From Alphaproteobacteria bacterium (lineage in GTDB: Bacteria; Pseudomonadota; Alphaproteobacteria; RF32; CAG-239): a stretch of DNA of 64,000 nt. Under the pieces are notes generated by a model that was given only the letters and a program-made list of their open reading frames with translations, ran no database searches and was not told the DNA's origin. Each line of letters begins with the position of its first letter. Positions within the stretch are counted from its first letter, which is position 1. A program made the translations under genes and the position numbers. Below are positions 34,161 to 58,433 of the stretch, one piece after another. The stretch lies in NCBI GenBank assembly GCA_045537965.1, contig JAZSQL010000054.1:15224-79223 (forward strand), read 5' to 3'.

Positions 34161-35858
34161 CTAATAGTTATTGCTTCGTCGTCTAATGGTAGGACAGCGG
34201 ATTCTGACTCCGTCAATCTTGGTTCGAGTCCAGGCGAAGCAGCCAGCTTGGACAGGGCTAGCGGAAATTTTCGCTAGCCCTTGATTTTTAAGGCTTTCGG
34301 CGAGTTCGATTGATTTCATATACCCAATTTGTACATTTTCGTTATCATTTGCCTGTAACCTTTGTCCTGCAACGGTTTGCATCTGTTCGTGCGGCAACAC
34401 TTTATTTCCTTTCGGATTGTTAATATTTACAAATTCATTAAACGGAAATCTTAATTTGTAACTGATTACGCCTTCGGTCAAAGTAATCTTTTCAAATACA
34501 AATTTTAAGAGAAGTCTTTTCATTTCATAATTAGATGATTTTTCAAAAAAGTATCCTGCTTGTGTAGCAATATCCAATAGTCCTAAAATTGTATCATCAA
34601 AGCAGATATCTGCTTTTTCATGAGAAGCTATTTTCCTTTTAATGCGTTCTATTTTTAACTGTATATCGTTCCGTTTTGTATCAAATGACTCTCTATCCAG
34701 TTCACCATCAAGCCTTAAATCAAACAATGTATCCATCTTTTCTTTGAGTTTTTCTTGTTCACCTTTAAGCCTTTTAATCTCTTCGGAATTGAATTTTCTT
34801 TCAGATGCTTTGGCTGTTTTGAGTTCTTGTTGTAGTTCTGTTATAATATTTTCAGGTAGTCTTATACAATTTAAAATTGAGCTCACACGACTAGTAAACT
34901 CTTCTTCACGAATATACATTCTTGTTTTATCTTTGCGCCAGCATGCTACATAGCTGAATATTCCTTTTTTTAATTCACACTGACATATTTTGTTAGTTAT
35001 GCCACAAGTAACTAATCCACGAAAAAGAAAATTCTTTTCAGATTTTTTTGTACATTGTCCGCCTCTAATTGCTTTCTGTTTTTGGCATAAATCCCATAAT
35101 TCTTTGCTTACTATCGGTTTATAAACATGTGGCATAATGCCTCTTTTTGTGCGCATTTCACCATAATAAAAAGGATTTCCCAATATATTATGCATAGAAT
35201 TAAGACAAATCTCTCCGCCTTTGGCATTTCTTAATCCCATCATATTTGCATAATGTTGTAGCTCGGAAACACTTGTATTGCCCAAAGAATAGATTTCATA
35301 ACATTTGCGAATAATTACAGCTTCTGATTCTTTAGGACGGATAAACTTTTTTCCTCGTTCATCTGTATAATTTTCATATCCGATAGGAGCTTGTCCTGTT
35401 ATTTCGCCATTTCTATTCTTTTGTTCAGTAGAGCGACGAACATTCTCGGACAGTTGCAAAACGTAAGCTTTCGCTCCCATTACCGAGAAATCCCATCTCA
35501 TAATATCAACAGATGTAGATTTACTATTTAATACCATTCCCTCACGATAGAAATGAAGCTCAATTTTATCTTGTCGCATCAACTCATCAAGCAACACACT
35601 TTCTTTGAAACTTCTTTGTACACGGTCAACTGTATCAGCAACAATAGCTATGGTTTCTTTCTGTCTTTTACAAAAGTTTATCATTTCCATAAATTGTTTA
35701 CGCTGACCATGAGTAGAACTCTCAACGATTTCAAAGGTTTTGATAACTTCTAAATCTTTTCTGTCAGCATACTCATGTAAACGATTACTTTGAGCAAGCA
35801 GGCTCAAGCCTTCTTCCTGCATCTTCGTTGAAACACGGGTTAGTATTATTGCCTTCAT
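34161..35858 (-). CDS. Large serine recombinase (integrase)
   Basis: N-terminal resolvase catalytic domain (ILTRVSTKMQ with Ser nucleophile) plus a large C-terminal recombinase/zinc-ribbon/coiled-coil region. ORF as tracked reads antisense through tRNA-Gln; the true stop may lie earlier. Confidence 0.82.
   Translation of the reverse strand: MKAIILTRVSTKMQEEGLSLLAQSNRLHEYADRKDLEVIKTFEIVESSTHGQRKQFMEMINFCKRQKETIAIVADTVDRVQRSFKESVLLDELMRQDKIELHFYREGMVLNSKSTSVDIMRWDFSVMGAKAYVLQLSENVRRSTEQKNRNGEITGQAPIGYENYTDERGKKFIRPKESEAVIIRKCYEIYSLGNTSVSELQHYANMMGLRNAKGGEICLNSMHNILGNPFYYGEMRTKRGIMPHVYKPIVSKELWDLCQKQKAIRGGQCTKKSEKNFLFRGLVTCGITNKICQCELKKGIFSYVACWRKDKTRMYIREEEFTSRVSSILNCIRLPENIITELQQELKTAKASERKFNSEEIKRLKGEQEKLKEKMDTLFDLRLDGELDRESFDTKRNDIQLKIERIKRKIASHEKADICFDDTILGLLDIATQAGYFFEKSSNYEMKRLLLKFVFEKITLTEGVISYKLRFPFNEFVNINNPKGNKVLPHEQMQTVAGQRLQANDNENVQIGYMKSIELAESLKNQGLAKISASPVQAGCFAWTRTKIDGVRIRCPTIRRRSNNY
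34172..34245 (+). tRNA. tRNA-Gln (anticodon CTG)
   Basis: Acceptor stem tgcttcg/cgaagca. Anticodon stem gcgga/uccgu with loop uuCUGac. T-arm ggttcgagtcc. Encoded CCA. Confidence 0.88.
34240..34603. repeat. Left copy of a long imperfect direct repeat (tRNA 3' end, terminator and integrase 3' end)
   Basis: Aligns with 58152-58433 base by base, with scattered mismatches and an in-frame ~81-bp segment present only in this copy and bounded by gttcg. Confidence 0.8.
34255..34289 (+). terminator. Rho-independent terminator after tRNA-Gln; duplicated at 58166-58200
   Basis: Perfect 9-bp stem gggctagcg/cgctagccc followed by ttgattttt. Confidence 0.6.
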
Positions 35859-36083
35859 TTTCTAAAATCTCCTGTCGTAGCATTAATAAACATTTTGCAA
35901 AACCTATTAAATGCCTTGCACCTTGTTCTAATTGTGCATCCGATAAAGGCTCTGATGATATGTTCCGCAATGCTTCTTTTAATTTGGCTGTCATTTTATC
36001 TTATCTCCATGCAATCCTCAAGCCAAGGCATTGTTGTTTTTTATGCAAGGGCTTATTATACAAGCCCCTGCATAAAAGGTAAT

Positions 36084-36599
36084 TTATCCTTGTTGGGTAA
36101 AAACACTTGTTGGAAGTCCCATTGCTGATAGCATTGGCTCTGTCGCAGCAATAGTTCTTATTTTTGCTTCTTCAGCTTTTTTCTCTCGTTCTGCTTTCTT
36201 TTTATTGCGACGACGTTCATTAGCCTCTTTTTTGCGAGCATTGGCATTATCAATCTCTTTTGCCAAGAAATCTGTAATGTCCTCATCAAATCCCTTATTG
36301 GCAACGCTGGTATAAAAATCTGCCAAAAATTGAAGCTTTTGTTCTGTACTCAACAAATCCAAAGAATAGCGAACAATACGTTTACCACCGAGACGAAGCG
36401 TAAAAATGGAATTTTTCTCGGTATCCGTCATCAATTTATTCATACGGTTTGATATATCCCAACTATTATCCTTAAAGTTTTTCATATTCTCGGTCAAAAG
36501 TTTCAAAATACGCTCACGAGCTTTTTCAAGTGTAAGCAATCCTTCATCTTTTGAGGTTTCAAGCTTGTTAGCATTATATTTCATTAAAAATTGTTTCAT
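36084..36599 (-). CDS. Hypothetical protein with a basic C-terminal tail
   Basis: 171-aa ORF carrying an RRRNKKKAEREKKAEE basic stretch. Confidence 0.45.
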   Translation of the reverse strand: MKQFLMKYNANKLETSKDEGLLTLEKARERILKLLTENMKNFKDNSWDISNRMNKLMTDTEKNSIFTLRLGGKRIVRYSLDLLSTEQKLQFLADFYTSVANKGFDEDITDFLAKEIDNANARKKEANERRRNKKKAEREKKAEEAKIRTIAATEPMLSAMGLPTSVFTQQG

Positions 36600-36715
36600 T
36601 TTATTTTCCTTTCAAAAATTAAATTAGTTAAAAAAAGAGCATAATAATTCTGTATGGCATTTAGGCATCCCTTCACGCCATTTGGGTTAAAATTGTTGGT
36701 TTTGTTAGATTTTAG

Positions 36716-36955
36716 TTATTTTTGACAGTCCATAACATAAACCACATCGGTTGGTTCAAACGGACATCTCGTTTCGGTTAGGTAAAAAGGCTCACCAAGA
36801 GCTGATATAAAAGCATAAACACCTTGCGGAGAGTTTATGACTTCGCTGTATCGCTTCAATTCCTTAAAATTACAGTTTGTAAAATGCTTGGAAGCTATAA
36901 CGGATATTTCATCCGGTAAAAAATCAGCGACTTTTGCTACAACTTGATAATTCAT
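36716..36955 (-). CDS. Hypothetical small protein
   Basis: 79-aa ORF. Confidence 0.3.
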   Translation of the reverse strand: MNYQVVAKVADFLPDEISVIASKHFTNCNFKELKRYSEVINSPQGVYAFISALGEPFYLTETRCPFEPTDVVYVMDCQK

Positions 36956-36966
36956 TGCAAGCCCCC

Positions 36967-37074
36967 TAATAAGCGAAACGAGCCATATTAACGAGGTTCT
37001 CTAAACGTTTTGCATCTCTGTTGAGGTGATACTTCCTCTTTAAAGATGCTATGATGTAACTTAAAACAGTCATT
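36967..37074 (-). CDS. Possible 35-aa small ORF with an AGGAA RBS
   Basis: ATG preceded by aaaggaaactaaa. Too short to validate from sequence alone. Confidence 0.2.
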
Positions 37075-37373
37075 TTAGTTTCCTTTCAAATTTTATTTTA
37101 ATAAAACGGTATTGCTACCTGACACCGTTAGTATGAAAGAAAACCAAAACAGAAGTCAACGCCTTATTTTTCAACGATTTTTGCAATGTATGTTTTTAAA
37201 TGTATTTAAATGGGTATTGATGGGTTTATCGGGGTAAAAAGTTTTTGATACATTTTGTAAAAAAGGCAATATTTTATAAAATTTAGTCACGAATCGTAAA
37301 AATTATGATGTTAAATAAACTTAAACTTATATAAGATATTAATTATATTAGGTTAGTTTTTAGGTAGAAAAAG

Positions 37374-39023
37374 ATGTCATGGATTAATATTAAAGATTAC
37401 CAATTTAAAGAAGATACTTATATGAGTGTGGAAAAAGTTGATGAAGCAATCCCCTCATTAAATCAAAACAATATTAAAAATTTTAATTTTAAATTTCAAA
37501 ATACTGTTATTGATAATCTTTTGGTAAGAGAATATGCAAAAAGTTTAGCAGAGCCTGTACAACAAGGCAATTTCATATATTGTGATAACGTAGAGCAACT
37601 TAAAGAATTTTGCATGTTGTTCATGATGCGACTATCAAAAGTTTTTTTGACACTTAAAAATCATAACATTGAAAATGTAGGTAATTCTATCAAAAATTTA
37701 ATGGCTTGTTATGATGAATATGTAGAAGAGACTGGAAATGATTGTAAAGCTTTTCAGTCTGTGAAGGAGTTCCTTTTTAGCCTTCCTTCTAAAGAAGAAG
37801 CTCCCATAACAATTAAGAATGAATATTTAGACCAATATTATTCTTATTATGCTGATGCACTAAAAACATTCTTGTCAATTTTAGCGACAATATTCAATTA
37901 CAATCTAAAACAGCCCACTTTATCTTCAAAAGAACTAAAAATATTTGAAAAAAAGGGATATACTCGCAACTTTATAGCCAATAATGAAATCAAATTAAAA
38001 AAGTTTTTAGCTGATTTTGATGAAGAATATTGCTTTGCAAAGCAAGAGCCTATCACAGGTTTTATACATAATTACGCAGATATAGAGCTAAAATCATTAG
38101 GCTTTAACAATTTGTGCTTACATTTGAAAAATATGAAAATCGGCTCAAATGAAGAAACTCTTCACTTATTTACGTTTATTGATTACGTAGATATTAGGAC
38201 AGTGATTTTTGAAAACTGTTGTTTTAGTGAAGCAGAGCATCTATCTTTAAGAAGCAAATCATTTTTGTTCAAAAATTGCACATTTAATTGCAAACTTCGT
38301 TATTGGGAAGCGAGTATTCCAAAAAACTTTCAAACAGTAATAAGTTTATTAAAATTTGAAAGCTGTACGTTTAATGATAGCTTTGAGGTTGATAAAATTA
38401 AAAAGGGATGCTATTCAGCTATTATCTTAAGAAATTGTACTTTTTCAGAGCGTGCAAACTTTTTACTATCTAATATCTCTAAATTGAAAGTTATTTTTAG
38501 TAATACAATCTTTGGTGGTAAAGTATCCTTTACAGATGTGAACTTTCATGATGGACAATTTTCTAATATCGTATTCCTAAACGAATTTAGAGTTAAGAAC
38601 GTTACCTTTACATCCCATATTGATTTCAAACAACTCATATTTTCTGCAAATGTTGTAAAGACTATGAGTAATTCTATTCGTTCATTTGTAAAATCATTAG
38701 AAGATAATGGGTTTAATGATTATGCCGCAGAGTTAGCTGAATTTTACTTAAATGACTTAAATAGTAGCAAAAATAAAGAAGAATTTGATATTGCTATCAA
38801 ATCTGATTGGGTCAATATTAAACAAGCTGCAAGAATTTTAGGGCTTTCATATAATACCTTGCTGACGATGAGAAAAGAAGACAAAGCTACCGGAATTATC
38901 AGAATTCCTTATATTGGTGATGGCAAAAGTACGAAATACTATTATCCGCTTCTTATTGCTTACAAAAGTAATGATATGGCTTTAGTTAAAAAACTTGAAA
39001 AAGAAATGAACAGCAAAAAGTAA
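37374..39023 (+). CDS. Pentapeptide-repeat (beta-helix) protein with an N-terminal unknown domain and a C-terminal excisionase/MerR-like HTH
   Basis: Residues ~280-430 show strict 5-residue periodicity with Phe/Leu at the centre (FENCCF, FKNCTF, FESCTF, LRNCTF, FSNTIF, VSFTDVNFHDGQFSNIVF). C-terminus IKQAARILGLSYNTLLTMRKEDKATG is an HTH_17-like motif. Confidence 0.6.
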   Translation: MSWINIKDYQFKEDTYMSVEKVDEAIPSLNQNNIKNFNFKFQNTVIDNLLVREYAKSLAEPVQQGNFIYCDNVEQLKEFCMLFMMRLSKVFLTLKNHNIENVGNSIKNLMACYDEYVEETGNDCKAFQSVKEFLFSLPSKEEAPITIKNEYLDQYYSYYADALKTFLSILATIFNYNLKQPTLSSKELKIFEKKGYTRNFIANNEIKLKKFLADFDEEYCFAKQEPITGFIHNYADIELKSLGFNNLCLHLKNMKIGSNEETLHLFTFIDYVDIRTVIFENCCFSEAEHLSLRSKSFLFKNCTFNCKLRYWEASIPKNFQTVISLLKFESCTFNDSFEVDKIKKGCYSAIILRNCTFSERANFLLSNISKLKVIFSNTIFGGKVSFTDVNFHDGQFSNIVFLNEFRVKNVTFTSHIDFKQLIFSANVVKTMSNSIRSFVKSLEDNGFNDYAAELAEFYLNDLNSSKNKEEFDIAIKSDWVNIKQAARILGLSYNTLLTMRKEDKATGIIRIPYIGDGKSTKYYYPLLIAYKSNDMALVKKLEKEMNSKK

Positions 39024-39163
39024 TAAGTTATTTAGACTTATTATAAATGTAGTAAATAGCAAATAAATTAAGTTGAACTTATAAATAAAATACTTGAAAT
39101 ATTAATAGGGATTAGATAGCATTTCTCTCAATAGATATTTTTTAATAAATTCGGAGAATGTAG

Positions 39164-41395
39164 ATGGCTGTATTAGAACAAAAAATCACTATTGAAGATT
39201 CTTGTTCTATTGTTAAAAAAGCAAAAAGTCCTTTTTCACCAATTAAGGAAGCTATAACAAATGCCATGGATTCTATTGTAAAAAGGCAAGAATCGGGTAT
39301 TTCGTTTATACCTAAAATATCCGTTATTTTAAACTTTATAGAAAAAAAAGATTTATATAATCCTGAAAATTCTAAATATTTGTTATCGTCAATTTCAATT
39401 GTTGATAACGGGGAAGGATTTATTCAAAAAAACATTGAAAGATTTAAAAATCTAGGAGAAAGAAGCAAAGGATTAAATAATAGAGGAACTGGTAAAGTAC
39501 AATTATTTTGCCGTTTTAAACAAATTGATATAGAAAGTATTTTCTATGAAGATAATAAATGGAAAAAATTTACATCTACATGGAAAAGAAATGGTGATTA
39601 TACAGACAGTATTTCATACATAGGTAAAGAAAATGATAACAAAACTACTGTAATGATGTCTTATTTAATCAATGATAAAGAACATGAATATTATGGAGAG
39701 TATTTAAAAGATATTGAAAATTTAAAAAGAGATATATTAAAAAATTTTTTATTGCGTTTATGGTTAGGCTCATCATCTACAAATCAGTCTATTGAAATAA
39801 AAACAATGATTAATGAGCATGAAAAAGATAGTTTTATTTATAACGAAAAAACAATACCCGTTCCTGATAAAGAAGATACTATTAAGATACATACACAAAA
39901 AGCTGATATTTATAAAGACACAAAAGGGAAAATAAAAGTAACATGGCTGTCAACAGAACCATCATATACTTTAAATTTTTATAGATTCAAGCTAAATGCC
40001 TCTGAAATTAATGAAAATGGAGTATATATTTGTAGTAAAAATATTGTTGTAGAACCTTTTAGCTTTTCTGCAGTAAAAAAAACAGCTAATTTTGATGGGG
40101 CGCGTTATATATCATGCGTAAGTGGCAATTTATTAGATGCATCAGATAATGTTAGTCAATCAGTGGAGAGTTTTAATTTCCCATTAAAAAGAGAAGTAGA
40201 AAAAGATTTAAAAGAAGAAACAGGAGAGTTGTTTAATCAAGAAAATATTTTTGTTTTTTGGGATGAGATAAAAGAAAAAATAAATTTAGTTTTAGAAAAA
40301 AATTATTCTGACATTCAGGGATTAAAAGAAAGTAGAGAAAAAGATATTTTAAAAATTGCTGCTCGTTATGGCATATCTTCTGATATTGTAGATGAAGCAG
40401 ATATAGAATTTAATGATACTGAAGAAAAAACTATAGAGAAACTTTTTCAAGCTCAAGCTCGTAAATTTGCAAAAGAAAATATAGAAATCCGACATACGTA
40501 TGAAGAATTAAATAATCTTGAGTTGCAAAACTTAGACCCTACAAGCAATGACTATAAAGACAAGTTTAGAGCTGTTTCTCAAAAGTTATTGCAAAAAATA
40601 CCTCAACAAAATAAGGATGAACTAACTCGTTATATCATTAGAAGGGATATGGTTGTAAAATTGCTTGGCTTGGCTCTCAAAAATGAATTAGCCATTCAAA
40701 AAGATTGGAAAGACAAGAAAGCTCGTGGTATCGATGTAAAGAGACAAAAGGAAGCTATTTTTCATGATTTGATTTTTAGAAGAAAAATGAAAGGTGTGCC
40801 GAATGATTTATGGATATTAAATGAAGAGTTTGTTCATTTTGATGGTTATTCAGACATAGAACTAGAGAATCTGGTAGTTAATGGTGAAAAATTATTGCAA
40901 GATAATATTGATATATATGAAGCATTGAAATCTGTAGGTATAGAAAAAGATACATACTTAAAACAACGTCCAGATATATTTTTATTTCCAGAAGAAGGGA
41001 AATGTATATTAATAGAATTCAAAGCTCCTGATGTTGATTTATCTGAGCATACAAACCAAATTTCAAGATATGCAACATTGATAGCAAATTATTCTCGTAG
41101 ACCTAAGCAATTTACACAATTTTTTGGTTTTTTAATTGGAGAAGAGATAGACTTAGTTAATTTAGATAGGTCTTTATGGAAGAAAGTTCCTTTTGGAAAT
41201 TATCGTATCTATCCTAATAAAGAAATATTATCTATAGGAGAAGTAGAAACAACTATAGCTAATATATATCAAGAAATTATACCTTTTTCTGAAATAGCTA
41301 AAAGAGCTAAGATACGAAATAAAAGTTTTGCTGAAAAACTAGGAATAGAAGAAAGTGAATTAGAAAAAATTCAAAATCTAAACAATATTCTTTAA
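39164..41395 (+). CDS. GHKL-family (Bergerat fold) ATPase fused to a C-terminal PD-(D/E)xK-like nuclease motif
   Basis: N-box EAITNAMDS, G1 box IVDNGEGF and G2-like NRGTGKVQLF near the N-terminus. Near residue 600, RPDIFLFPEEGKCILIEFKAPD matches the PD-x(n)-ExK pattern. GGAGAATG RBS. Confidence 0.65.
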   Translation: MAVLEQKITIEDSCSIVKKAKSPFSPIKEAITNAMDSIVKRQESGISFIPKISVILNFIEKKDLYNPENSKYLLSSISIVDNGEGFIQKNIERFKNLGERSKGLNNRGTGKVQLFCRFKQIDIESIFYEDNKWKKFTSTWKRNGDYTDSISYIGKENDNKTTVMMSYLINDKEHEYYGEYLKDIENLKRDILKNFLLRLWLGSSSTNQSIEIKTMINEHEKDSFIYNEKTIPVPDKEDTIKIHTQKADIYKDTKGKIKVTWLSTEPSYTLNFYRFKLNASEINENGVYICSKNIVVEPFSFSAVKKTANFDGARYISCVSGNLLDASDNVSQSVESFNFPLKREVEKDLKEETGELFNQENIFVFWDEIKEKINLVLEKNYSDIQGLKESREKDILKIAARYGISSDIVDEADIEFNDTEEKTIEKLFQAQARKFAKENIEIRHTYEELNNLELQNLDPTSNDYKDKFRAVSQKLLQKIPQQNKDELTRYIIRRDMVVKLLGLALKNELAIQKDWKDKKARGIDVKRQKEAIFHDLIFRRKMKGVPNDLWILNEEFVHFDGYSDIELENLVVNGEKLLQDNIDIYEALKSVGIEKDTYLKQRPDIFLFPEEGKCILIEFKAPDVDLSEHTNQISRYATLIANYSRRPKQFTQFFGFLIGEEIDLVNLDRSLWKKVPFGNYRIYPNKEILSIGEVETTIANIYQEIIPFSEIAKRAKIRNKSFAEKLGIEESELEKIQNLNNIL

Positions 41396-41436
41396 TTAAT
41401 AAGCAGACATAACCCTCCATATAGAATGTAAAAGAA

Positions 41437-41466
41437 TTGACATTTTTTAACATTTTCTCTGTAATT
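41437..41466 (+). promoter_or_regulatory. Sigma70-like promoter (TTGACA, 18-nt spacer, TGTAAT) upstream of the 286-aa gene
   Basis: Consensus -35 hexamer and a near-consensus -10. Confidence 0.4.
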
Positions 41467-41517
41467 GGCTATTTTCCTAGTATTTTATTTTGACTGTCTT
41501 ATGTGGCAAATATAAAA

Positions 41518-41555
41518 TGTTAAACTTTATTAAAGTTGACTATGAAGTTTAACAT
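41518..41555. promoter_or_regulatory. Perfect 11-bp inverted repeat (ATGTTAAACTT, 16 nt spacer, AAGTTTAACAT); candidate operator
   Basis: Lies between the putative promoter and the start of the 41560 ORF. Confidence 0.4.
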
Positions 41556-41559
41556 TTGA

Positions 41560-42420
41560 TTGATATTTACAAGGATTTACATTATTATAACAAAAAATAT
41601 CATAGAGAGGATTGTTTTGCCTAATACAGTTGTAAAATTGAAATTAAAATTTACTGGAGCCGATGCAAGAAACCATCGATTAGATTTTTATGATGCAACC
41701 TACTCACTATATGGATTTGCTCGTGCATTACAAATAACAATGGATTTATTTGTAAATAAAAGAGTAATAAAAAAGGCAAACACAACTAAAAACTTTAAAA
41801 GTTATATGCTTACCTCTAAAGAAGGAAGTTTTGAGCAGGATATTCTTTATTTGTTAGCATCAGGAGTAGCTGTTAATGCTGTTTATGATTTTATTAAATA
41901 TGTATTTAAACAAGCTATTAGCTCCGAACGGGTTCGTTTGAATAGACAACAAAGTTTAATGCACACAGAATACGAGCCATATTTCGATAAAATAACAGAA
42001 GTTATTAAAAATCCATTACTTGATGCTCACAGAGTTATAAAAATGAATCCATCTTGTAAAATATCTTTGATTGCGGAAAAGGAAAATAGTTCCAATAGTA
42101 CTTTAGTAAATTTTAATTATGATACTTATTGTTATCTATCCCAAGAAGAAAATAACGATGATATAATAGTAGAAACAGGAAATATAACTAAATATAATGT
42201 ATTAACCCAAAATGGTAGAGTTTATTTGACTTCATATGGACGAGTAATTTCATTTTCTCTTTGTAAAAACATAAGCGATGATGCAAAAAATTTAATAACA
42301 TTATCTTTACATAATAGGAACAATGGTCTTCCAGATATTCTAAACATAAGTTATAAAAAAGTATTATCTTCTAATAATAAAATTGTAAAAATAATTATAG
42401 TTGATTGTTCAGAATTATAG
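41560..42420 (+). CDS. Hypothetical protein, third gene of the candidate module; start uncertain (TTG at 41560 or a downstream TTG/ATG)
   Basis: 286-aa ORF co-oriented with the two upstream genes. GAGAGGA RBS precedes an internal TTG at ~41617. Confidence 0.45.
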   Translation: MIFTRIYIIITKNIIERIVLPNTVVKLKLKFTGADARNHRLDFYDATYSLYGFARALQITMDLFVNKRVIKKANTTKNFKSYMLTSKEGSFEQDILYLLASGVAVNAVYDFIKYVFKQAISSERVRLNRQQSLMHTEYEPYFDKITEVIKNPLLDAHRVIKMNPSCKISLIAEKENSSNSTLVNFNYDTYCYLSQEENNDDIIVETGNITKYNVLTQNGRVYLTSYGRVISFSLCKNISDDAKNLITLSLHNRNNGLPDILNISYKKVLSSNNKIVKIIIVDCSEL

Positions 42421-42432
42421 CGTTTGTATATA

Positions 42433-42810
42433 TTAGTCATGTACTTTTAACTTCTTCAAAATCTGTTTCACTTCATCATTCGGAATATATTTTTCAGTAT
42501 CATCATATTCAAATTGATGATTGATTAGTTTTCCCTTCTTAATATAATAAATGTTAATTGAGTTATCGCCATAGGATTGATGATAATGAACTAAAGGTAA
42601 ATCTTTATAAGTAAATCCATTGTTCCAAAGGTTAATCAAATTGCCGAGTGTGATTTTATCTATTCTGTATGAATAATACGGACAGGCAAAAGCGTTAATT
42701 ATCAAACCTGAAATGACAAATTCGGCACAAGTCCTATTTTGTAACTTGTGCCGATTATTATAAATCCACTCACAATGGTTTATAAAACACTTTTTATCTA
42801 TGATTGGCAT
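42433..42810 (-). CDS. Hypothetical protein
   Basis: 125-aa ORF translationally coupled to the recombinase gene upstream. Confidence 0.4.
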   Translation of the reverse strand: MPIIDKKCFINHCEWIYNNRHKLQNRTCAEFVISGLIINAFACPYYSYRIDKITLGNLINLWNNGFTYKDLPLVHYHQSYGDNSINIYYIKKGKLINHQFEYDDTEKYIPNDEVKQILKKLKVHD

Positions 42811-42811
42811 A

Positions 42812-43396
42812 TTAAACCCTCACATTCTCCACGGCATTAGCAAGCATTTGCTGGTTGTAATTGAAATAATGCTGTGTGGTTGAGATGTTTCTATGATTGG
42901 CGAGTTTTTGAACTAAACAGATATTAACTCCGGAATTTACCAGTTTTGATACAAACAAGTGTCTGCCCAAATGGCTTGCACCTTTAATGTTGAATTTGCG
43001 GTAAATCGAAGAAAACAAACGACTAATGCTTACTCTGTTATAAGGTTTATTGAGTTTTTGACTTGTGAACAAATATGTTTCCTGTGTCAGTTTCTCGCCC
43101 CATTTTCTTTGCAAATATTTCAAATATTCGCAAAACTCCTTCTTTAACTGGCTATTCATATAATATTCGCATTTGTTTTTGCCTTTGTTTTTATCGTAAT
43201 CAAGACAAATGACATCTTTGATTTTCAAATCATCGGTAAAAATATCTTTGATTTGCAGATAAGCAAAATTAATTGAGCGCATGCCATTTAGACTGCAAAG
43301 GAACATCATACGAATTTGTTCGGTATGCTTCATCGATTTGATGAAATTCAAAATATCCTTAATTTTCTTATCATCTACAAAAACATCATTTGTCAT
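42812..43396 (-). CDS. Tyrosine-type site-specific recombinase, catalytic domain only
   Basis: Conserved Arg (GMRSIN), HLGRHLFVSKL..G (box II His/Arg) and HRNISTTQHY (catalytic Tyr). 194 aa, lacking the N-terminal core-binding domain. Confidence 0.7.
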   Translation of the reverse strand: MTNDVFVDDKKIKDILNFIKSMKHTEQIRMMFLCSLNGMRSINFAYLQIKDIFTDDLKIKDVICLDYDKNKGKNKCEYYMNSQLKKEFCEYLKYLQRKWGEKLTQETYLFTSQKLNKPYNRVSISRLFSSIYRKFNIKGASHLGRHLFVSKLVNSGVNICLVQKLANHRNISTTQHYFNYNQQMLANAVENVRV

Positions 43397-43408
43397 AATT
43401 ACCTCTCT

Positions 43409-43777
43409 CTACAAATTGTAATATTTCTCAACTCTTTTTCTTAATATTTGCTGTCCTTCCTTGATTATTTCGCTCAACCTTTTATCATCAAAACACTCTT
43501 TGATTTGCTTTAAGTTCAAAGTCAGGTCATGCAATAAATGACATCCGACTTTACGCTTCTCACAATCAAGAACTCCATAATAAAACTTACTCTTACCTAA
43601 AAATTGTTCAGAAAACTGTTGTTTGCTCTCAACAATTCCAAGCTCCTGCAAAAGCTCATAAGCCTTGTTCAGATAATCTAAACCGTTATTTGCTTCTAAA
43701 TCTTGTGGCTGTGGGGTTTTGCGTTTTATCATTTTGACTAACTCTTCCTTAAATTTGTTTTTCCAGTTCATCATCAA
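43409..43777 (-). CDS. Hypothetical protein
   Basis: 122-aa ORF. Confidence 0.4.
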   Translation of the reverse strand: MMMNWKNKFKEELVKMIKRKTPQPQDLEANNGLDYLNKAYELLQELGIVESKQQFSEQFLGKSKFYYGVLDCEKRKVGCHLLHDLTLNLKQIKECFDDKRLSEIIKEGQQILRKRVEKYYNL

Positions 43778-43982
43778 TCCTTTCTTATGGTATTTATTAC
43801 CAAATGTAATGAGCTGGCTATTTCTTCACCATTGCTTGATAAAATACAGTGTAGTCAATTTGTTGTGTCATAGTGGCAATTCCACCTTGAAGTTCCCATC
43901 CTTTCTTTATCTGCTCATTTACCCATTTTATCAACTCATCTATACTGGTTGAACAAATCACATCATATTGCATAGGCATCTC

Positions 43983-44309
43983 CTAATACTCATCAGCATA
44001 CATTATAGTCATAACTCGGTTGGTAAGTCTTGGCTTGCAAGCATTAGGCGAAAGGAAAAGGAAATTGTTGTCATAATAATCAATCTTCCAGAAAATCTTT
44101 TTGCCCTTAAAAGTAAATGCCCCGAAATCCTTTTCGCCATATGGGTTATTATTTTCATTGAAATCGTTGAAATTGCGGACTTTATTGATAATGGTTGTAA
44201 TATCATCATGAGTGTTGCTTCTGATACCTTCGGTTAAAATCAAAGTACCTAGCGAGGGATTGGCTCTGAAAGCATCATTTAGTTTGGCGATTTCTGATAC
44301 ATTATTCAT
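43983..44309 (-). CDS. Small protein resembling the DUF3768 family (recalled, unverified)
   Basis: Motifs NDAFR, NNPYGEKDFGAFTF.GKKIFWKIDYYD and LTNRVMTIMYADEY match my recollection of DUF3768 proteins found on plasmids and ICEs. Confidence 0.4.
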   Translation of the reverse strand: MNNVSEIAKLNDAFRANPSLGTLILTEGIRSNTHDDITTIINKVRNFNDFNENNNPYGEKDFGAFTFKGKKIFWKIDYYDNNFLFLSPNACKPRLTNRVMTIMYADEY

Positions 44310-44829
44310 TGCAACTATCCTCTAAATATAAGTTGAACATCAAATCCACCAAGCCTTCTTTGTCGTTGGCATAGTCCCAAACATTTTTTCCTTTGTTGTT
44401 TTTGATATCAGGGTCAGCATCGTTATTGATAAAAAACTCAATCAATCCCAAACGCATCATGGCTTGCGGATGATTTACAACCTTTATAAAAGCTGTATTA
44501 CCGGCATTGTCTTGGGCATTGATATCACTTCCGGCTTGAAGCAAAAGGTTCAAACTAGCAGGATTGCTTCGTTTCTTGGCGGCAATCATAAAAGGAGTAT
44601 CGCCGGAAATGTTACGAGAATGAACATCGCCACCGTGAGATAAGAAAAGCTCAATGACCTCGGGTTCATAGAACTCACGGCAGGCGAACATAAAAGGAGT
44701 GTAACCGTTAGAATTGTAGGGTTTGTTTACATCTGCACCATTTTCAAGCAAAGTCTTGATAGTTGCGAAGTCTTCGCTATAAAGTGCTTTCATTAAATCA
44801 TTATCGTTACTAACCATTTGAATCTCCAT
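44302..44829 (-). CDS. Ankyrin-repeat protein
   Basis: Four to five ANK repeats (NGADVN...GYTPFMFACR, GSDINAQDNAGNTAFI, NNDADPDIKNNKGKNVWDYA). Confidence 0.85.
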   Translation of the reverse strand: MEIQMVSNDNDLMKALYSEDFATIKTLLENGADVNKPYNSNGYTPFMFACREFYEPEVIELFLSHGGDVHSRNISGDTPFMIAAKKRSNPASLNLLLQAGSDINAQDNAGNTAFIKVVNHPQAMMRLGLIEFFINNDADPDIKNNKGKNVWDYANDKEGLVDLMFNLYLEDSCNE

Positions 44830-45020
44830 GAAATTGCGGGTGGCTTTAAATTGCCGCCCGGGATATCATGCAAAGATTCAGCTGTCAAGCCGCAAAATTA
44901 ACATTTTTTCACGATAATCTATTGATTCTAAAGAATTTCTTTTAAATTCAGAGGATTAGGAATGTAACATTTATTACAAAAAGTAATGATAAATACCTTT
45001 ATAAGCCAAAGGATAAGGAA

Positions 45021-45329
45021 ATGAAGGTGTTGATTGAGACTATCACAAATCGTAAAGGGTATAAGAATTTCAAAGATATTGATTGTTTGGGCGAGTTTTT
45101 GAACGAAAATCGCAAGAAGATTAAAAGCTTCAAAATCTTAAATGAAACCTATAACGGTACTTTTGAAGAATTGCTTCAAGATGTTATGAAACGAGCTGAT
45201 TTTCTTGGAAACATGATAGGTTACGCATTTTTTCAAATGACCGATAAAAGCGACAAGTACAATAAATTGCTTCGTGCAATGGGGCTTGCCGCCGAAATTC
45301 AAGGTTTGGTTAGAGGGTATTTGAAATAA
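45021..45329 (+). CDS. Hypothetical protein
   Basis: 102-aa ORF. Confidence 0.35.
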   Translation: MKVLIETITNRKGYKNFKDIDCLGEFLNENRKKIKSFKILNETYNGTFEELLQDVMKRADFLGNMIGYAFFQMTDKSDKYNKLLRAMGLAAEIQGLVRGYLK

Positions 45330-45347
45330 CAATATCTTTTTTATACT

Positions 45348-46601
45348 CTAAAAGTCTAAACTTTCAGGTGATAATAAGAAATCTTTTAACCCTACAATTA
45401 AAATACCAGATTCATTGTAGTACGGTTTTCTGCTACCTCCAACGATAATGATTTTCTTAAATCCATCAGGAATATTAAGAAGTGACCTTTCTTCCTGTTT
45501 TTGTTTTTCTTCAGTAGGCATACTATATGCTGATTGTATGTAATATCTTTTGCTTCCCAAATTAACTACAAAATCAACTTCTAATTTCTTTTCTTGCTTT
45601 TTCCCTGCAGTATTTTTCTCTGTAACTGTAACTTCTCCAATATCAATTTGGTAACCTCTTATAGTTAATTCATTATATATAACATTTTCCATAAGATGAG
45701 TTTCTTCTTGCTGACGAAAATTAATTTCTGCGTTTCTTAATCCTACATCAGTAAAGTAATATTTTGCAGGTGTATTGATATATTTCTTTCCTTTTATATC
45801 ATAACGAAGCACTTTGTTTATTAAAAATGCATCTTCTAAGAAAGATAGGTAATTCTTTATTGTCGGTGCTGTTAAATCTAAATGTTTCTTGCTTTTGAAT
45901 GTATCTGCTAGTTTTTGAGGATTTGTTAAAGAACCGATATTAGATGCAACAACAGCAAGCAATTCTTCTAATTCTTCAGAGTTTTGTATTTTGTTTCTTG
46001 CTATAATATCCTTTAAGTAAGTTTCTTTATACAAATTCTGCAAATATTTTGCTTTTTCAATATCTGTATTGAATTTGAATAATGCAGGCATTCCTCCATA
46101 TACACTATACTCATTCCAAGCATCGTCCCAATCTGTGTTTTTATGAGCATAAAATTCGGCAAAACTCAATGGATGAATACGAATTTCATCTCCTCTACCT
46201 CTAAATTCTGTAACAATATCAGTTGATAAAAATTTAGAATTACTTCCGGTTACATAAACATCTAAGTTTTTAATTCGTAAAAATCCGTTCAAAACACTTT
46301 CAAAATCTTCCATCATTTGAACTTCATCAAGTAGTAGATAATACATGTCTTTGTCTTGTATTCTTTCTTTTACATAACTTGTGCATTCATCAGGATTGCG
46401 ATATTTTTCATCTTCTCTGGTATCTAATTGAATAGAGATAATATGGTCTTCTTTTACATCGTTTTCTAATAAGTGGTTATAGAATAACTCAAATAACATA
46501 TATGATTTGCCACAACGACGGATACCACTGATTATCTTAATAAAACCATTGTGTTTGTGGCTAATAAGTTGATTTAAGTAGGTATCTCTTTTGATTTCCA
46601 T
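45348..46601 (-). CDS. AAA-family ATPase with a DUF4143-type C-terminal domain (start re-placed at MEIKR)
   Basis: MEIKRDTYLN...GIRRCGKS (Walker A) ...LLLDEVQ (Walker B). GGAGG RBS 5 nt upstream of this ATG. The upstream part of the tracked ORF is a translated palindromic repeat. Confidence 0.8.
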   Translation of the reverse strand: MEIKRDTYLNQLISHKHNGFIKIISGIRRCGKSYMLFELFYNHLLENDVKEDHIISIQLDTREDEKYRNPDECTSYVKERIQDKDMYYLLLDEVQMMEDFESVLNGFLRIKNLDVYVTGSNSKFLSTDIVTEFRGRGDEIRIHPLSFAEFYAHKNTDWDDAWNEYSVYGGMPALFKFNTDIEKAKYLQNLYKETYLKDIIARNKIQNSEELEELLAVVASNIGSLTNPQKLADTFKSKKHLDLTAPTIKNYLSFLEDAFLINKVLRYDIKGKKYINTPAKYYFTDVGLRNAEINFRQQEETHLMENVIYNELTIRGYQIDIGEVTVTEKNTAGKKQEKKLEVDFVVNLGSKRYYIQSAYSMPTEEKQKQEERSLLNIPDGFKKIIIVGGSRKPYYNESGILIVGLKDFLLSPESLDF

Positions 46602-46612
46602 AATTGCCTCCA

Positions 46613-46718
46613 TTTTAGATTTTGCCGACAAGTCGGTATTTTCTAAAATAATATACATTAAATAGATAAAAGTCAAGAGTATTTTAGATTTTGCCGACAA
46701 GTCGGCATTTTCTAAAAT
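46613..46718. repeat. Two copies of a 37-bp palindromic element (46613-46649 and 46682-46718) in the promoter region of the AAA ATPase gene
   Basis: ttttagattttgccgacaagtcgg(t/c)attttctaaaat, with inner palindrome ccgacaagtcgg and outer arms tttaga/tctaaa. Copies are 69 bp apart. Confidence 0.55.
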
Positions 46719-46780
46719 GAACAAACCACCACCTTATATAAAAGTAGCGATTTTATAGGAGAATTTATTGTTTAGTGGGC

Positions 46781-47302
46781 TTATTCCTTATAAATCACTG
46801 CACCATTATCTAAAAGTAGGTTTGCTATATCTATTTCTATTCGTTCTAATGCGATAAGAAGTGCTGTTTCTCGTTGGTAATTGAGCCAATTTACATCACA
46901 TCCTTTATCAATCAACATCTGAATTACATCTAGTTTTAGGTCATCAGTCATATTTTCGTTCAAAATTACTGACATTATCGCATTATAGCCAAATATATCG
47001 GTTTGGTTGATTTCGCTTCCTTGTTCGAGCAGATATTCAATCGGCTCTATGGTAGAGCAAAAGTAGCAAGCAACCAAGAAAAGTGTAGCTCTTCGGCGGT
47101 TTATTGGTGTGTTAATTTGGAAATTTTCCATTTCTATCATTTTTTGTATCTCATCAACGCAATCAATGCAAAGCTCCGCTTCGCTTTCATAATTAACCAC
47201 AGGAAACACCGGTGCGTTCTTCACTCGCTCAGCAATCTGTTCCATTTTCTTTTGCATTTCGGGGAATTCACCTAGAAGCCATTTGTTGCAAAAAATCGTC
47301 AA
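46781..47302 (-). CDS. Ankyrin-repeat protein
   Basis: ANK repeats (GSEINQTDIFGYNAIM, GCDVNWLNYQRETALLIA, LLLDNGAV). Confidence 0.75.
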   Translation of the reverse strand: MTIFCNKWLLGEFPEMQKKMEQIAERVKNAPVFPVVNYESEAELCIDCVDEIQKMIEMENFQINTPINRRRATLFLVACYFCSTIEPIEYLLEQGSEINQTDIFGYNAIMSVILNENMTDDLKLDVIQMLIDKGCDVNWLNYQRETALLIALERIEIDIANLLLDNGAVIYKE

Positions 47303-47577: not shown

Positions 47578-47979
47578 CTATTTAATCTGTGTTTTGTAAA
47601 GAGAACCATAGATTGAGTTATCTTTTGCTAATAATTCTTCATGTGTTCCTATTTCTACAATCTCACCATAGTTTACAACAACAATCTTATCGGCATTCCT
47701 AACAGTAGATAGGCGGTGTGCAATAATAAACACCGTTCTATCTTTCATAAGATTATCAATGGCTTGTTGAACAACTGCCTCAGATTTATTATCAAGAGCT
47801 GATGTTGCCTCATCTAAAATAACAATAGGAGCATCTTTGATAAAAGCTCTGGCAATGGCTATTCTTTGTTTCTGACCACCTGAAAGCAAAACACCTCGCT
47901 CACCAATCTCTGTATCTAAACCTTTTTCAAGACTAGATATAAATTCTTCTAAACAAGCACATTTAATAGCTTTATGGTG
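47578..47979 (-). pseudogene. 3' fragment of an ABC exporter ATP-binding domain (signature to C-terminus only)
   Basis: Frame encodes ..[45 protein letters not shown]. No Walker A or TMD. The fragment begins exactly at the stop codon of the upstream gene. Confidence 0.7.
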
Positions 47980-58027: not shown

Positions 58028-58433
58028 TTATGCAGCAAATAAACTTCTTATTAATTGGACTTGTTCTTTCATTTCCAATATTTCTGAACGGTGATTAACA
58101 AGTACACAATAAAGTTGGGCTGATTTTTGTTCTACATATTCCTCTTTCTGCCAGCCAGCTTGGATAGGGCTAGCGGAAATTTTCGCTAGCCCTTGATTTT
58201 TAAGGCTTTCAGCGAGTTCGTGCGGCAATGCTTTGTTTCCTTTCGGAGTGTTAACATTTACAAATTCATTAAACGGAAATCTTAATTTGTAACTGATTTT
58301 ACCTTCAGTCAAAATAATGTTCTCAAATACAAATTTTAATAAAAGTCTTTTTAATTCAAAATTTGATGATTTTTCAAAAAAGTATCCTGCTTGTGTAGCT
58401 ATATCTAATAATCCTAAAATTGTTTCGTCAAAG
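58028..58433 (-). pseudogene. Remnant 3' portion of a second serine-integrase gene
   Basis: Encodes ..ISYKLRFPFNEFVNVNTPKGNKALPHELAESLKNQGLAKISASPIQAG, matching the last ~100 residues of the 34161-35858 integrase. No N-terminal catalytic domain. Confidence 0.7.
58152..58433. repeat. Right copy of the long direct repeat (tRNA-Gln 3'-end-like cagccagcttgg, terminator hairpin and integrase 3' end)
   Basis: Co-linear with 34240-34603 but missing the in-frame ~81-bp segment. Confidence 0.8.

Follow-up and report, generated by a model that had tools for sequence, protein, structure and literature searches.

A predicted GHKL ATPase-nuclease gene in the defence cargo slot of a serine-recombinase island

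Genes and boundaries of the island

The DNA analysed is a stretch of 64,000 nucleotides from an Alphaproteobacteria bacterium, referred to throughout as the window. A sequence-only reading had described three co-oriented genes within an integrase-bounded island, which we label genes 1, 2 and 3. All three open reading frames are real and all lie on the plus strand. The features of the locus are as follows.

34161-35858, minus strand: large serine recombinase, 565 aa (Pfam Resolvase and Recombinase; phrog_95 integrase, E = 5e-56)
34172-34245, plus strand: tRNA-Gln (ARAGORN; Rfam tRNA, 57.8 bits), left end of the island
35785-35994, 36084-36599, 36716-36955 and 36966-37073, minus strand: backbone genes p69, p171, p79 and p35, respectively
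37374-39023, plus strand: gene 1, 549 aa
38773-39007, plus strand: 3' end of gene 1, coding for its helix-turn-helix (HTH); recombination junction and left edge of the exchangeable cargo
39164-41395, plus strand: gene 2, 743 aa
41617-42420, plus strand: gene 3, 267 aa (longest open reading frame from 41560)
42433-42810, minus strand: p125, conserved backbone, right edge of the cargo slot
42812-43396, minus strand: truncated tyrosine integrase, 194 aa (Pfam Phage_integrase, E = 7e-20), conserved backbone
58152-58434, plus strand: direct repeat, a copy of the sequence just right of tRNA-Gln and of the recombinase 3' end

The probable start of gene 3 is the TTG codon at 41617, which has a GAGAGG ribosome-binding site upstream and is the point at which database copies begin. 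Computation shows all three genes to be under purifying selection, with dN/dS values of 0.07 for gene 2 and 0.06-0.17 for gene 1. Searches of the three proteins with PADLOC and NCBIfam returned zero matches. The genes had also been credited with promoter-like elements of their own. The 45 sites counted compare with 38.4 +/- 5.3 in shuffled sequences, which is the level of chance, and separate promoters were therefore discarded as evidence either for or against a single system.

Island boundaries were derived by blastn against related loci, which are denoted here by L numbers. The 3' end of the recombinase gene and tRNA-Gln overlap on opposite strands, and this tRNA gene is likely to be the integration target of the island. 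A tRNA-Gln stands at the equivalent position in L001, L076, L079 and L080, and a tRNA-Met in L075. The recombinase and backbone are conserved in L001, L075, L076, L079, L080, L093, L094 and L095, and in related loci p69, p171, p79 and p35 are in the same order and point the same way relative to the recombinase and gene 1. Pfam and PHROG searches of p69, p171 and p79 gave no match. On the other side, p125 and the truncated integrase recur as a pair in L079-L084, L094 and L095, and directly follow gene 1 in L093. The backbone order is recombinase-p69-p171-p79-p35 and gene 1 to the left of the slot, and p125-truncated integrase-DUF6626-DUF3768-ankyrin to its right.

Positions 34240-34308 were matched by blastn to 58152-58220 (97%) and 34385-34603 to 58216-58434 (89.5%), and an 18-nt motif, AAGGCTTTCRGCGAGTTC, occurs at 34290 and 58202 only. 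The repeat at 58152-58434 is what is left of a second recombinase copy. It is the probable right limit of the island, which appears to extend from tRNA-Gln (34172) to about 58150, or ~24 kb. A search for att-site repeats across 33.5-44.5 kb found AT-rich noise only. The term integrase-bounded was roughly right: the serine recombinase stands on one side of the genes, and the 194-aa tyrosine integrase on the other is truncated.

Domain architecture and family of gene 2

Gene 2 is predicted to encode a MORC-like GHKL ATPase, then a transducer domain and a helical region, and at the C-terminus a PD-(D/E)xK nuclease. The motifs quoted earlier for this protein, EAITNAMDS (residues 29-37), IVDNGEGF (79-86) and RPDIFLFPEEGKCILIEFK (602-620), are all present. 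Across 55 family members with identities down to 26%, residues E29, N33, D81, G85, G108, G110, P603, D604, E618 and K620 are invariant, which indicates that the motifs go beyond chance. Within the nuclease, E530 and Q632xxxY636 are invariant along with D604, E618 and K620, and G83 and T161 are kept in at least 90% of the members. GHKL motifs I (ExxxN), II (DxGxG), III (GxxGxG-like) and IV (T) are all conserved in the family.

Searched against Pfam, the window protein gave a sub-threshold HSDR_N match and no HATPase_c match at E<=1. HATPase_c was matched by 38 of the 55 family members (best 4e-7) and HATPase_c_3 by 16 of them, and the remote relatives P0221 and P0227 exceed the HATPase_c_3 cut-off. 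The GHKL assignment by sequence emerges at the level of the family only, not from the window protein. HSDR_N was matched by 35 of the 55, VRR_NUC matches were also present, and 13 members gave weak PADLOC matches to Cas4, plus a few to unrelated models. A profile of the nuclease domain matched the EcoR124I HsdR nuclease in the PDB (2W00; E = 1e-3), with the D, ExK and QxxxY residues aligned. Neither the gene 2 sequence nor its full-length profile found anything useful in the PDB, the single match being a spurious one to titin.

In three dimensions gene 2 displays a Bergerat fold with a transducer-type second domain directly behind the GHKL domain, and its nuclease core is structurally similar to that of Shedu. 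The structure model has a pTM of 0.60, a low value at which the domain arrangement and the dimer stand as predictions. The proposed fusion of a GHKL/MORC-like ATPase to a PD-(D/E)xK nuclease is borne out by the domain matches and by catalytic residues that are invariant family-wide; architecture and catalytic conservation are established at the computational level. An ordinary Hsp90, MutL or histidine kinase was ruled out by the conserved nuclease domain, by the defence-island contexts and by the absence of kinase and MutL C-terminal features.

The gene 2 family is rare. In a set of 1.84 billion representative proteins it forms ~236 clusters at 50% identity, and it is found in 65 of 185,579 species from several phyla. 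The neighbours of gene 2 relatives are highly variable and are typically restriction-modification (R-M) or defence genes. The 111 immediate neighbours include ResIII (9), HSDR_N (5), EcoEI_R_C (5), Methylase_S (4), Type_ISP_C (3), N6_N4_Mtase (3), AAA_21 (3), Mrr_cat_2 (2) and GmrSD_N (2), and plasmid-borne homologues adjoin restriction endonuclease, HEPN, SIR2 or HerA genes. The conflict-system-like company suggested for gene 2 is thus found among its relatives, and the defence-rich contexts are a computational observation.

Coupled hsdM-hsdS-gene2-hsdR operons, with gaps of <=3 bp or short overlaps, occur in L034, L041, L052 and L067, and related layouts in L025 and L049. These operons favour a reading of gene 2 as a non-autonomous R-M accessory subunit, which in the window would act with an unlinked R-M system, as does the HsdR nuclease being nearest in sequence to that of gene 2. 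Unrelated autonomous defence genes such as PrrC are often embedded in Type I operons, however, and we count this against the reading. So do the lack of any adjoining R-M gene in most gene 2 loci and the complete nuclease active site that gene 2 itself carries. The paraMORC literature is in favour, a DNA looping or processing role in R-M having been proposed by Iyer et al. (PMC2292703), whereas VcSduA, which is equivalent in architecture, functions by itself in a heterologous host (PMC12137116). On these grounds an accessory role seems to us unlikely.

Genes 1 and 3 and the exchangeable slot

The gene 1 protein consists of an N-terminal helical domain (residues 1-220), a beta-solenoid (237-423), a helical linker and an excisionase-like winged HTH (~477-549). 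The beta-helix core and C-terminal HTH read earlier from the sequence are upheld by these domains; for the assignment of the core to the pentapeptide repeats, the Pfam match is sub-threshold. Pectate-lyase-type helices score at least as well as pentapeptide-repeat helices against the solenoid, the coils of which are irregular, with 20-29 residues. Pfam matches of the C-terminus are likewise sub-threshold (HTH_17, E = 0.011; HTH_8, E = 0.01), and the AF2 model places helices at 482-489 and 493-506 together with a short strand pair. When the gene 1 model was compared with viral structures by Foldseek, no match was significant, the weak ones being to phage HTH proteins of 60-80 aa.

The solenoid is mildly basic (pI 8.6, net charge +4; whole protein, pI 7.8). 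In contrast, the pentapeptide-repeat DNA mimics Qnr, MfpA and AlbG have a strongly electronegative, DNA-like surface. They also have 20-residue quadrilateral coils, whereas gene 1 has irregular ones and adds a large helical domain at the N-terminus and an HTH at the C-terminus. Because the solenoid is not acidic, the DNA-mimic role suggested for gene 1 is unsupported, and it was ruled out on charge. Gene 1 relatives always accompany the same recombinase backbone. Their C-terminal HTH is nearly invariant and the remainder diverges; the gene 1 bodies of the window and L001 are only 43% identical, yet gene 2 adjoins both. Gene 1 is a backbone protein of the island and no dedicated partner of gene 2.

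Gene 3 is an independent passenger with the Pfam domains DUF7946 and DUF7947 (E = 4e-15 and 5e-10). It matches phrog_13337 (E = 3.8e-49), although tblastn against phage genomes gave no match, and a literature search on the two domains found no papers. A 100% identical gene 3 protein adjoins other cargo, SLFN_AlbA_2, in L079/L080/L082, and gene 3 homologues stand alone on plasmids.

The contents of the slot between gene 1 and p125 vary among related islands.

Window and L081: gene 2 and gene 3
L001: gene 2 and a Type IIG enzyme
L079/L080/L082: SLFN_AlbA_2 (Schlafen-like) and gene 3
L073: ResIII/Eco57I and an OLD-like ATPase
L076: Type IIG enzyme
L095: canonical Shedu (SduA_C)
L093: empty

The slot of L094 is empty or near-empty, and gene 1 is intact in both L093 and L094. 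In near-identical strains other genes replace the segment of gene 1 and gene 2, and gene 3 is kept. The DNA breakpoints lie at 37328 / 38685-38844 and at 41399-41425. The block common to the window and L001 begins at 38685 and covers the HTH-coding end of gene 1 as well as gene 2, and the block of ~100% identity common to the window and L081 begins near 38844. Within gene 1, positions 38773-39007 alone are similar at the DNA level to the 372-aa gene that takes its place in L079/L080/L082. The locus is a defence hotspot slot in a mobile island, in which gene 2 is exchanged with canonical defence genes. The shared block includes the HTH end of gene 1, and a short gene 1-like protein is found beside alternative cargo as well; the gene 1 HTH may therefore have a regulatory link to the slot cargo.

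Such a link could be taken further, with gene 1-type proteins as modular partners (transcriptional gatekeeper, sensor or immunity factor) of any slot nuclease, whether gene 2, Schlafen-like, Shedu or Type IIG, in a pairing that is generic. The near-invariant HTH beside a diverged remainder is in line with this, as is the finding that, in 6 of 9 slot states, a defence-type gene directly adjoins a gene 1-like gene (full-length or a short form of 372-375 aa). However, gene 1 persists intact beside the empty or near-empty slots, its neighbours in L075 and L076 are convergent and not co-transcribed, and its sole constant association is with the recombinase backbone. The cargo types, moreover, are known or inferred to function without partners elsewhere, and gene 2 relatives never need gene 1. 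We regard modular partnership as improbable. We hold equally doubtful a wider version in which the solenoid/HTH proteins are a new island gatekeeper working with any adjacent nuclease and the gene 2 family is a separate GHKL lineage, derived from the HsdR nuclease and missed by defence-finder models. Gene 1 may in that case sense infection or island excision and turn the cargo on, or, as a recombination directionality factor, may link defence to the mobility of the island. If so, the adjacency of genes 1 and 2 would be functional, in a generic and not a specific way.

Gene 2 might instead serve the mobile element (processing, maintenance or exclusion of competitors) and not anti-phage defence. 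It lies within ~3.3 kb of the large serine recombinase in the window-type island, and in the P0006-type element, which has at least three insertion contexts, a gene 2 relative is the terminal gene, with a different recombinase 95 bp upstream of it. Against this, a serine recombinase is found <=5 kb from a gene 2 relative in only 12 of 72 loci, the same-backbone islands L093 and L094 are entirely without gene 2, and gene 2 is interchangeable with canonical defence genes. We consider service to the element very unlikely.

Co-occurrence was assessed by phmmer of the three proteins against all open reading frames of the 72 gene 2-relative loci. Apart from the window itself, gene 1 relatives were found in a single close relative (L001/L002), which makes 2 distinct loci of ~70, and gene 3 relatives were found only in the window; L081, of the window lineage, also has gene 3. 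Gene 2 relatives stand without genes 1 and 3 in >60 loci. Conversely, gene 1 occurs without gene 2 in seven further contexts, in full in L073, L075, L076, L093 and L094 and as a short form in L079 and L095. The distribution of the three genes is independent by this computation. The sequence-only reading had itself named absent co-conservation as an outcome that would count against it, and the three-gene system is therefore largely refuted, as is the sensor/effector or toxin/antitoxin-like logic suggested for genes 1 and 2. Genes 1-3, or 1 and 2, as a dedicated system in which a pentapeptide DNA mimic controls a GHKL nuclease deserve almost no credence: the three genes do lie side by side in one orientation in the window and L081, genes 1 and 2 adjoin in L001/L002, and the block shared with L001 holds the gene 1 3' end and gene 2, but the distributions above, the basic solenoid with its sub-threshold pentapeptide assignment, and the differing relative order and orientation of cargo and gene 1-like gene in L095 all speak against it.

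Interpretation and relation to known systems

We think it probable that the locus is the cargo slot of a ~24-kb serine-recombinase island, with gene 1 as backbone, gene 2 as a self-sufficient nuclease of paraMORC3/type I-D-Shedu architecture and gene 3 as a passenger. The island would have inserted at tRNA-Gln, mobilised by the large serine recombinase. The gene 1 HTH would most likely act in regulation or directionality by binding either the recombinase or DNA of the island, and the DNA that codes for it would anchor the exchange of cargo by homologous recombination. If GHKL clamps and VcSduA are taken as the analogy, gene 2 would dimerise through its ATP-bound GHKL domains, and its transducer and helical middle region would clamp DNA. 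ATP binding or hydrolysis would then license the RecB/HsdR-like PD-(D/E)xK domain to cut invading DNA, protecting host and island. On this analogy, which would supply its nuclease activity, ATP control and anti-phage role alike, gene 2 is a candidate single-gene defence nuclease.

In P2/P4 prophage hotspots and in hotspot 5 of SXT ICEs, a conserved backbone flanks a slot that holds varying defence systems and is sometimes empty. The slot described here is likewise flanked by backbone, variable in content and empty in some strains. Unlike those hotspots, it is carried at tRNA-Gln by an island with a large serine recombinase, in Alphaproteobacteria that are low in GC and probably gut-associated, and its left anchor is the 3' end of gene 1. 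The tRNA-Gln island slot offers a discovery tool for defence genes in these poorly studied bacteria, the candidates being gene 3 and two further slot genes, one of 216 aa in L001 and one of 346 aa in L073. An apparent new three-gene system is removed, and the repeated insertion of gene 2 between hsdS and hsdR provides a handle on cooperation between GHKL nucleases and Type I restriction.

The view that no such system had been described is out of date, because a GHKL domain, transducer and nuclease in a single gene are known both from paraMORC3 (PMC2292703) and from the anti-phage protein VcSduA (PMC12137116). We set gene 2 beside these two by their published descriptions, not by sequence. paraMORC3, a computational prediction of Iyer, Abhiman and Aravind (2008), combines GHKL and S5 domains with a RecB-like E-D-ExK nuclease and occurs in proteobacteria and bacteroidetes, in part within R-M operons and in part stand-alone without conserved neighbours (PMC2292703). 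At this level of description, the gene 2 family agrees with it in its GHKL domain, transducer and C-terminal E-D-ExK restriction endonuclease fold, in its phyla, and in its R-M or stand-alone contexts.

VcSduA, the Shedu type I-D protein of Vibrio cholerae (Adams et al. 2025), defends E. coli against T1-like phages, and its E27A and K557A mutations abolish defence (PMC12137116). Like gene 2, it is a single polypeptide in which an N-terminal GHKL domain with motifs I-IV is followed by a clamp-like middle and then by a PD-(D/E)xK nuclease at the C-terminus, and it lies in a mobile island beside other defence genes; its catalytic Glu, E27, is at the position equivalent to E29 of gene 2. Gene 2 is longer (743 aa), has its nuclease lysine at K620 instead of K557, and belongs to a family of 65 of 185,579 species, whereas VcSduA homologues are present in ~1.2% of genomes (PMC12137116). 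The nucleases also differ, that of VcSduA being DUF4263/SduA_C. No SduA_C match (PF14082) was found in the window gene 2, in 10 remote representatives, or among the 25 families listed for the 55 members, and the PADLOC Shedu models matched neither gene 2 nor those members. The gene 2 nuclease is not recognisably SduA_C/DUF4263, and transfer of the VcSduA mechanism therefore rests on architecture, not on proven orthology. PADLOC v2 and the Pfam Shedu model miss the gene 2 family, though the VcSduA architecture has been validated experimentally, and an entry for the family would be a cheap gain for defence catalogues.

Canonical Shedu SduA (B. cereus 8TI8/8TI9; E. coli 8PS4) shares with gene 2 the core D-x13-(I/L)E(F/I/V)K-x-P and, in L095, occupies the same island slot. 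However, it has no GHKL domain and is without significant sequence or profile similarity to gene 2 beyond a 22-residue core: hhalign of the gene 2 nuclease profile with the Shedu of L095 gave a probability of 0.9% and E = 0.058 over 22 columns, and the profile matched no SduA PDB chain at E<=10. The best sequence-level match of the nuclease is the N-terminal nuclease of HsdR (EcoR124I), which is coupled to an SF2 translocase and HsdM/HsdS, whereas that of gene 2 is coupled to a GHKL ATPase. The GHKL and transducer ATPases MORC, SMCHD1 and MutL are only 12-16% identical to gene 2 and differ from it in nuclease domain and biological context. PADLOC gave no match to Tiamat for gene 2 at E<=1 or for the 55 members, which, on the assumption that its library contains a Tiamat model, indicates that gene 2 is not Tiamat. 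Gene 2 is not part of a new three-gene system; it is a further member of a known GHKL-nuclease architecture, carried in a defence hotspot.

Layout of the locus and its island frame

Genes 1-3 are three adjacent plus-strand ORFs lying between minus-strand genes. The features of the locus are as follows.

34161-35858, minus strand: large serine recombinase (565 aa), left of gene 1
Left of gene 1, minus strand: four small ORFs, p69, p171, p79 and p35
37374-39023, plus strand: gene 1, ORF of 549 aa
39164-41395, plus strand: gene 2, ORF of 743 aa
41560-42420, plus strand: gene 3, longest ORF
Right of gene 3, minus strand: p125 and a truncated tyrosine integrase (194 aa)
Right of gene 3, minus strand: DUF6626, DUF3768, ankyrin and AAA_14/DUF4143 genes

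The start codon of gene 3 is most likely the TTG at 41617, downstream of a GAGAGG ribosome-binding site; copies of the protein in databases are 267 aa long. A family search of p69, p171 and p79 gave no match. GC content drops to 0.25-0.29 over genes 1-3. Every motif quoted in the sequence-only reading was found at its position. The promoter-like elements it had ascribed to the genes were not enriched, with 45 sigma-70-like sites as against 38.4 ± 5.3 in shuffled sequences.

A genuine tRNA-Gln gene (34172-34245, plus strand; Rfam 57.8 bits) is overlapped by the 3′ end of the minus-strand recombinase gene. The overlap recurs in four related loci (L001, L076, L079 and L080), with tRNA-Met instead in L075. 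The window and L079 differ in the left flank past the tRNA and have the right flank in common. The post-tRNA hairpin/terminator and part of the recombinase 3′ end (34240-34603) are present as a direct repeat at 58152-58434 in two matching stretches, of 97% and 89.5% identity, separated by 76 bp; the second copy is a remnant of another recombinase gene. This repeat is probably the right boundary of a ~24-kb island, or else a tandem accretion at a single att site. Within the window, the 18-nt motif AAGGCTTTCRGCGAGTTC is confined to 34290-34307 and 58202-58219, in the two recombinase-end copies (0.1 expected by chance). It is also found at 12327-12344 in L003, L006 and L009, 83 bp past the gene 2 homologue, on the outer boundary of a P0006-type element, which has a different serine recombinase; it is a candidate att half-site common to both element types. 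Taken together, the tRNA-Gln/recombinase frame, the repeat, the motif copies and the lower GC content suggest an island of ~24 kb (34.2-58.15 kb).

The island has a second variable slot at 45348-46724, between the same 102-aa gene and an ankyrin gene, which holds AAA_14/DUF4143 in the window and L079, a DUF3800 protein in L081, and AbiEii with DUF6088 in L093. Two ankyrin-repeat proteins are encoded inside the island (44302-44829 and 46781-47302) and are kept in related islands; they are unusual bacterial island cargo and hint at a host-associated lifestyle. A 103-aa ORF at 47578-47889, whose match is limited to the C-terminal part of an ABC/SMC_N ATPase, looks truncated because an intact 585-aa ABC transporter occupies the corresponding place in L081.

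The slot beside gene 1 and the relationship of the three genes

Gene 1 has ~30 relatives, of which nine distinct contexts were examined. In these the gene always lies beside the same backbone of p171-like and p35 genes, accompanied by the recombinase in all but L073. The cargo between gene 1 and p125 varies.

Contents of the slot beside gene 1 in the window and related loci
Window, L081: gene 2 and gene 3
L001: gene 2, a 216-aa gene and a Type IIG enzyme
L073: a 346-aa gene, a ResIII/Eco57I giant and an OLD-like ATPase
L075: outer-membrane genes, convergent
L076-L078: DUF5655, convergent, and a Type IIG enzyme
L079/L080/L082, 5038-7745 (short gene 1, 372 aa): SLFN_AlbA_2 (501 aa) and gene 3
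L095, 6554-9128 (short gene 1, 375 aa): canonical Shedu, SduA_C (401 aa)
L094: single small ORF
L093, 8001-10181: empty; gene 1 followed directly by p122 and a truncated integrase

The contents of this slot change from strain to strain in the manner of a defence hotspot. In strains with a 100% identical gene 3, two blocks are homologous to the window DNA, 34178-37328 and 41425-45335; between them the segment with genes 1 and 2 is replaced, and only the final ~235 bp of gene 1 (38773-39007) is still similar. The window and L001 have only 38685-41399 in common, that is, the 3′ end of gene 1 plus gene 2. Identity to L081 is ~100% over 38844-42343 (gene 1 3′ end, gene 2 and gene 3), compared with 96-98% in the left flank and 90-94% in the right, which points to a very recent recombinational transfer of this block between strains. 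These DNA comparisons place the exchange junctions in the gene 1 end that encodes the HTH and in the ~30 bp past the gene 2 stop codon; gene 2 moves as a cassette.

The sequence-only reading was largely right as an observation, but its joining of genes 1-3 into one system did not hold. ORFs were called in 72 loci containing a gene 2 relative and searched with all window proteins. Relatives of gene 1 were found only in L001/L002 and the window, and gene 3 only in the window; there is no co-conservation of the three genes, and the neighbours of gene 2 in the remaining loci were highly variable. Gene 3 is kept in place where a Schlafen-like gene substitutes for gene 2 and is missing from L001, showing that it is not a partner of gene 2.

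Gene 3 matches DUF7946 and DUF7947, and phrog_13337 with an E-value of 3.8e-49; searches for a structure and for literature on it returned nothing. Homologues of it with 22-31% identity, annotated 'hypothetical' and standing alone, come from conjugative plasmids and from a cassette-like array in Vibrio. The latter (L089, Vibrio sp. HDW18 plasmid, 3992-4810) places the homologue among short single-gene units (VOC, RelE/ParE, GNAT and ClbS) in an arrangement resembling an integron cassette array, which suggests that gene 3-type proteins function alone.

The proposal that gene 1 encodes a pentapeptide DNA-mimic-like partner was likewise not upheld. The AF2 model (pLDDT 84, pTM 0.77) has four parts: a helical N-terminal domain (residues 1-220), which the short forms of 372-375 aa lack, a β-solenoid (237-423), a helical linker and a C-terminal HTH with a weak match to the excisionase-type HTH_17. 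The C-terminal ~70 residues hardly vary among proteins otherwise 40-45% identical; in the homologue P0077, ~45% identical overall, the HTH segment (residues ~477-549; window 38802-39020) is nearly identical. This conservation reflects either strong functional constraint or repeated homogenization as a recombination anchor. Our best inference is that gene 1 encodes a putative DNA-binding protein of the island backbone, a regulator or directionality factor.

The gene 2 family and its genomic surroundings

The sole Pfam match of the window's gene 2 protein was a sub-threshold one to HSDR_N (E 0.006, residues 599-657), and no match was obtained in PADLOC or NCBIfam, nor in the PDB by sequence. Among 5.8 billion proteins, a word-indexed search picked out 71 relatives, nearly all ~740 aa long and without a precomputed Pfam domain. 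When 1.84 billion representative proteins were searched exhaustively with a profile, 236 clusters passed E ≤ 1e-30, 1390 passed E ≤ 1e-10 and 2200 passed E ≤ 1e-3. Scanning one genome per species placed relatives in 65 of 185,579 species; the hosts include gut and other Alphaproteobacteria, Bartonella, Hyphomicrobium, Planctomycetota, Elusimicrobiota, Verrucomicrobiota and many Bacteroidota.

The assignment of gene 2 as a GHKL ATPase with a PD-(D/E)xK nuclease was borne out. Across 55 full-length members, with identity as low as 26%, the invariant residues are E29, N33, D81, G85, K102, G108, G110 and Q113 in the GHKL part and E530, H534, W550, P603, D604, E611, E618, K620, Q632 and Y636 in the nuclease part. 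Pfam matches among these members were to HATPase_c (38/55), HATPase_c_3 (16/55), HSDR_N (35/55) and VRR_NUC (12/55). A profile of the nuclease domain (A6) matches the EcoR124I HsdR nuclease (E 1e-3), and the catalytic D, ExK and QxxxY motifs line up. The AlphaFold model (pLDDT 82, pTM 0.60) has a helical region at ~340-540. With the L001 copy as reference, dN/dS is 0.07.

The commonest Pfam families among 111 immediate neighbours of gene 2 were those of restriction-modification or defence: DEAD (10), ResIII (9), SWI2_SNF2 (6), EcoEI_R_C (5), HSDR_N (5), Methylase_S (4), Type_ISP_C (3), N6_N4_Mtase (3), AAA_21 (3), Mrr_cat_2 (2) and GmrSD_N (2). Recombinases were represented by Resolvase (4) and Phage_integrase (3). 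L041 and L052 carry hsdM-hsdS-gene2-hsdR in that order, the genes being at most 3 bp apart or overlapping slightly, and the arrangement upstream of gene 2 is the same in L034 and L067. Elsewhere, an OLD-like AAA_15/AAA_21 and DUF4435 ATPase lies within the Type I R-M operon of a gene 2 homologue (L049, 7566-14453), and a GmrSD_N-SLFN_AlbA_2 fusion gene lies downstream of a homologue at such an operon (L025/L027, 12094-14244); with the gene 2 homologue these are multi-layer defence clusters. Plasmid homologues (23-35% identity), annotated as 'hypothetical' or 'ATP-binding protein', adjoin restriction endonuclease, HEPN, DUF4365, SIR2/HerA or UvrD genes. In the P0006 loci, the second island type, gene 2 is the last gene of the element, 95 bp downstream of another serine recombinase, and homology among three insertion contexts stops 80-160 bp past its stop codon.

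Comparison of gene 2 with known defence proteins

Shedu type 1D takes in GHKL-containing proteins with a DUF4263 nuclease (Gu et al. 2023). No SduA_C match was found in gene 2 or the family members tested, and this domain is absent from the families listed for 55 members. Profile-profile comparison of the gene 2 nuclease with a genuine Shedu aligned only a 22-residue D-x13-ExK core, with a probability of 0.9%. Tested for membership of the DUF4263-defined Shedu family, gene 2 did not qualify. Against PADLOC, the gene 2 family showed weak Cas4 similarity only.

The paraMORC3 proteins combine GHKL and S5 domains with a C-terminal RecB-like RE-fold nuclease bearing E-D-ExK, and occur in proteobacteria and Bacteroidetes, some in R-M operons and some stand-alone (Iyer et al. 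2008, PMC2292703). Compared with this description, every feature is present in gene 2. VcSduA, the type I-D Shedu of Vibrio cholerae, also joins GHKL to DUF4263; it confers protection from T1-like phages and does not kill the host, and this protection is abolished by E27A and K557A mutations (Adams et al. 2025, PMC12137116). We file gene 2 as a paraMORC3 match by description that is predicted to work like VcSduA. What remains novel is that its nuclease is HsdR-like and not detectably Shedu (SduA_C), that the family is embedded repeatedly in Type I operons, and that gene 1 is a conserved anchor beside a swappable defence slot. Architecturally, gene 2 is a rare candidate member of an already known class, the single-protein defence nucleases, and the slot it occupies in the serine-recombinase island is a defence hotspot.
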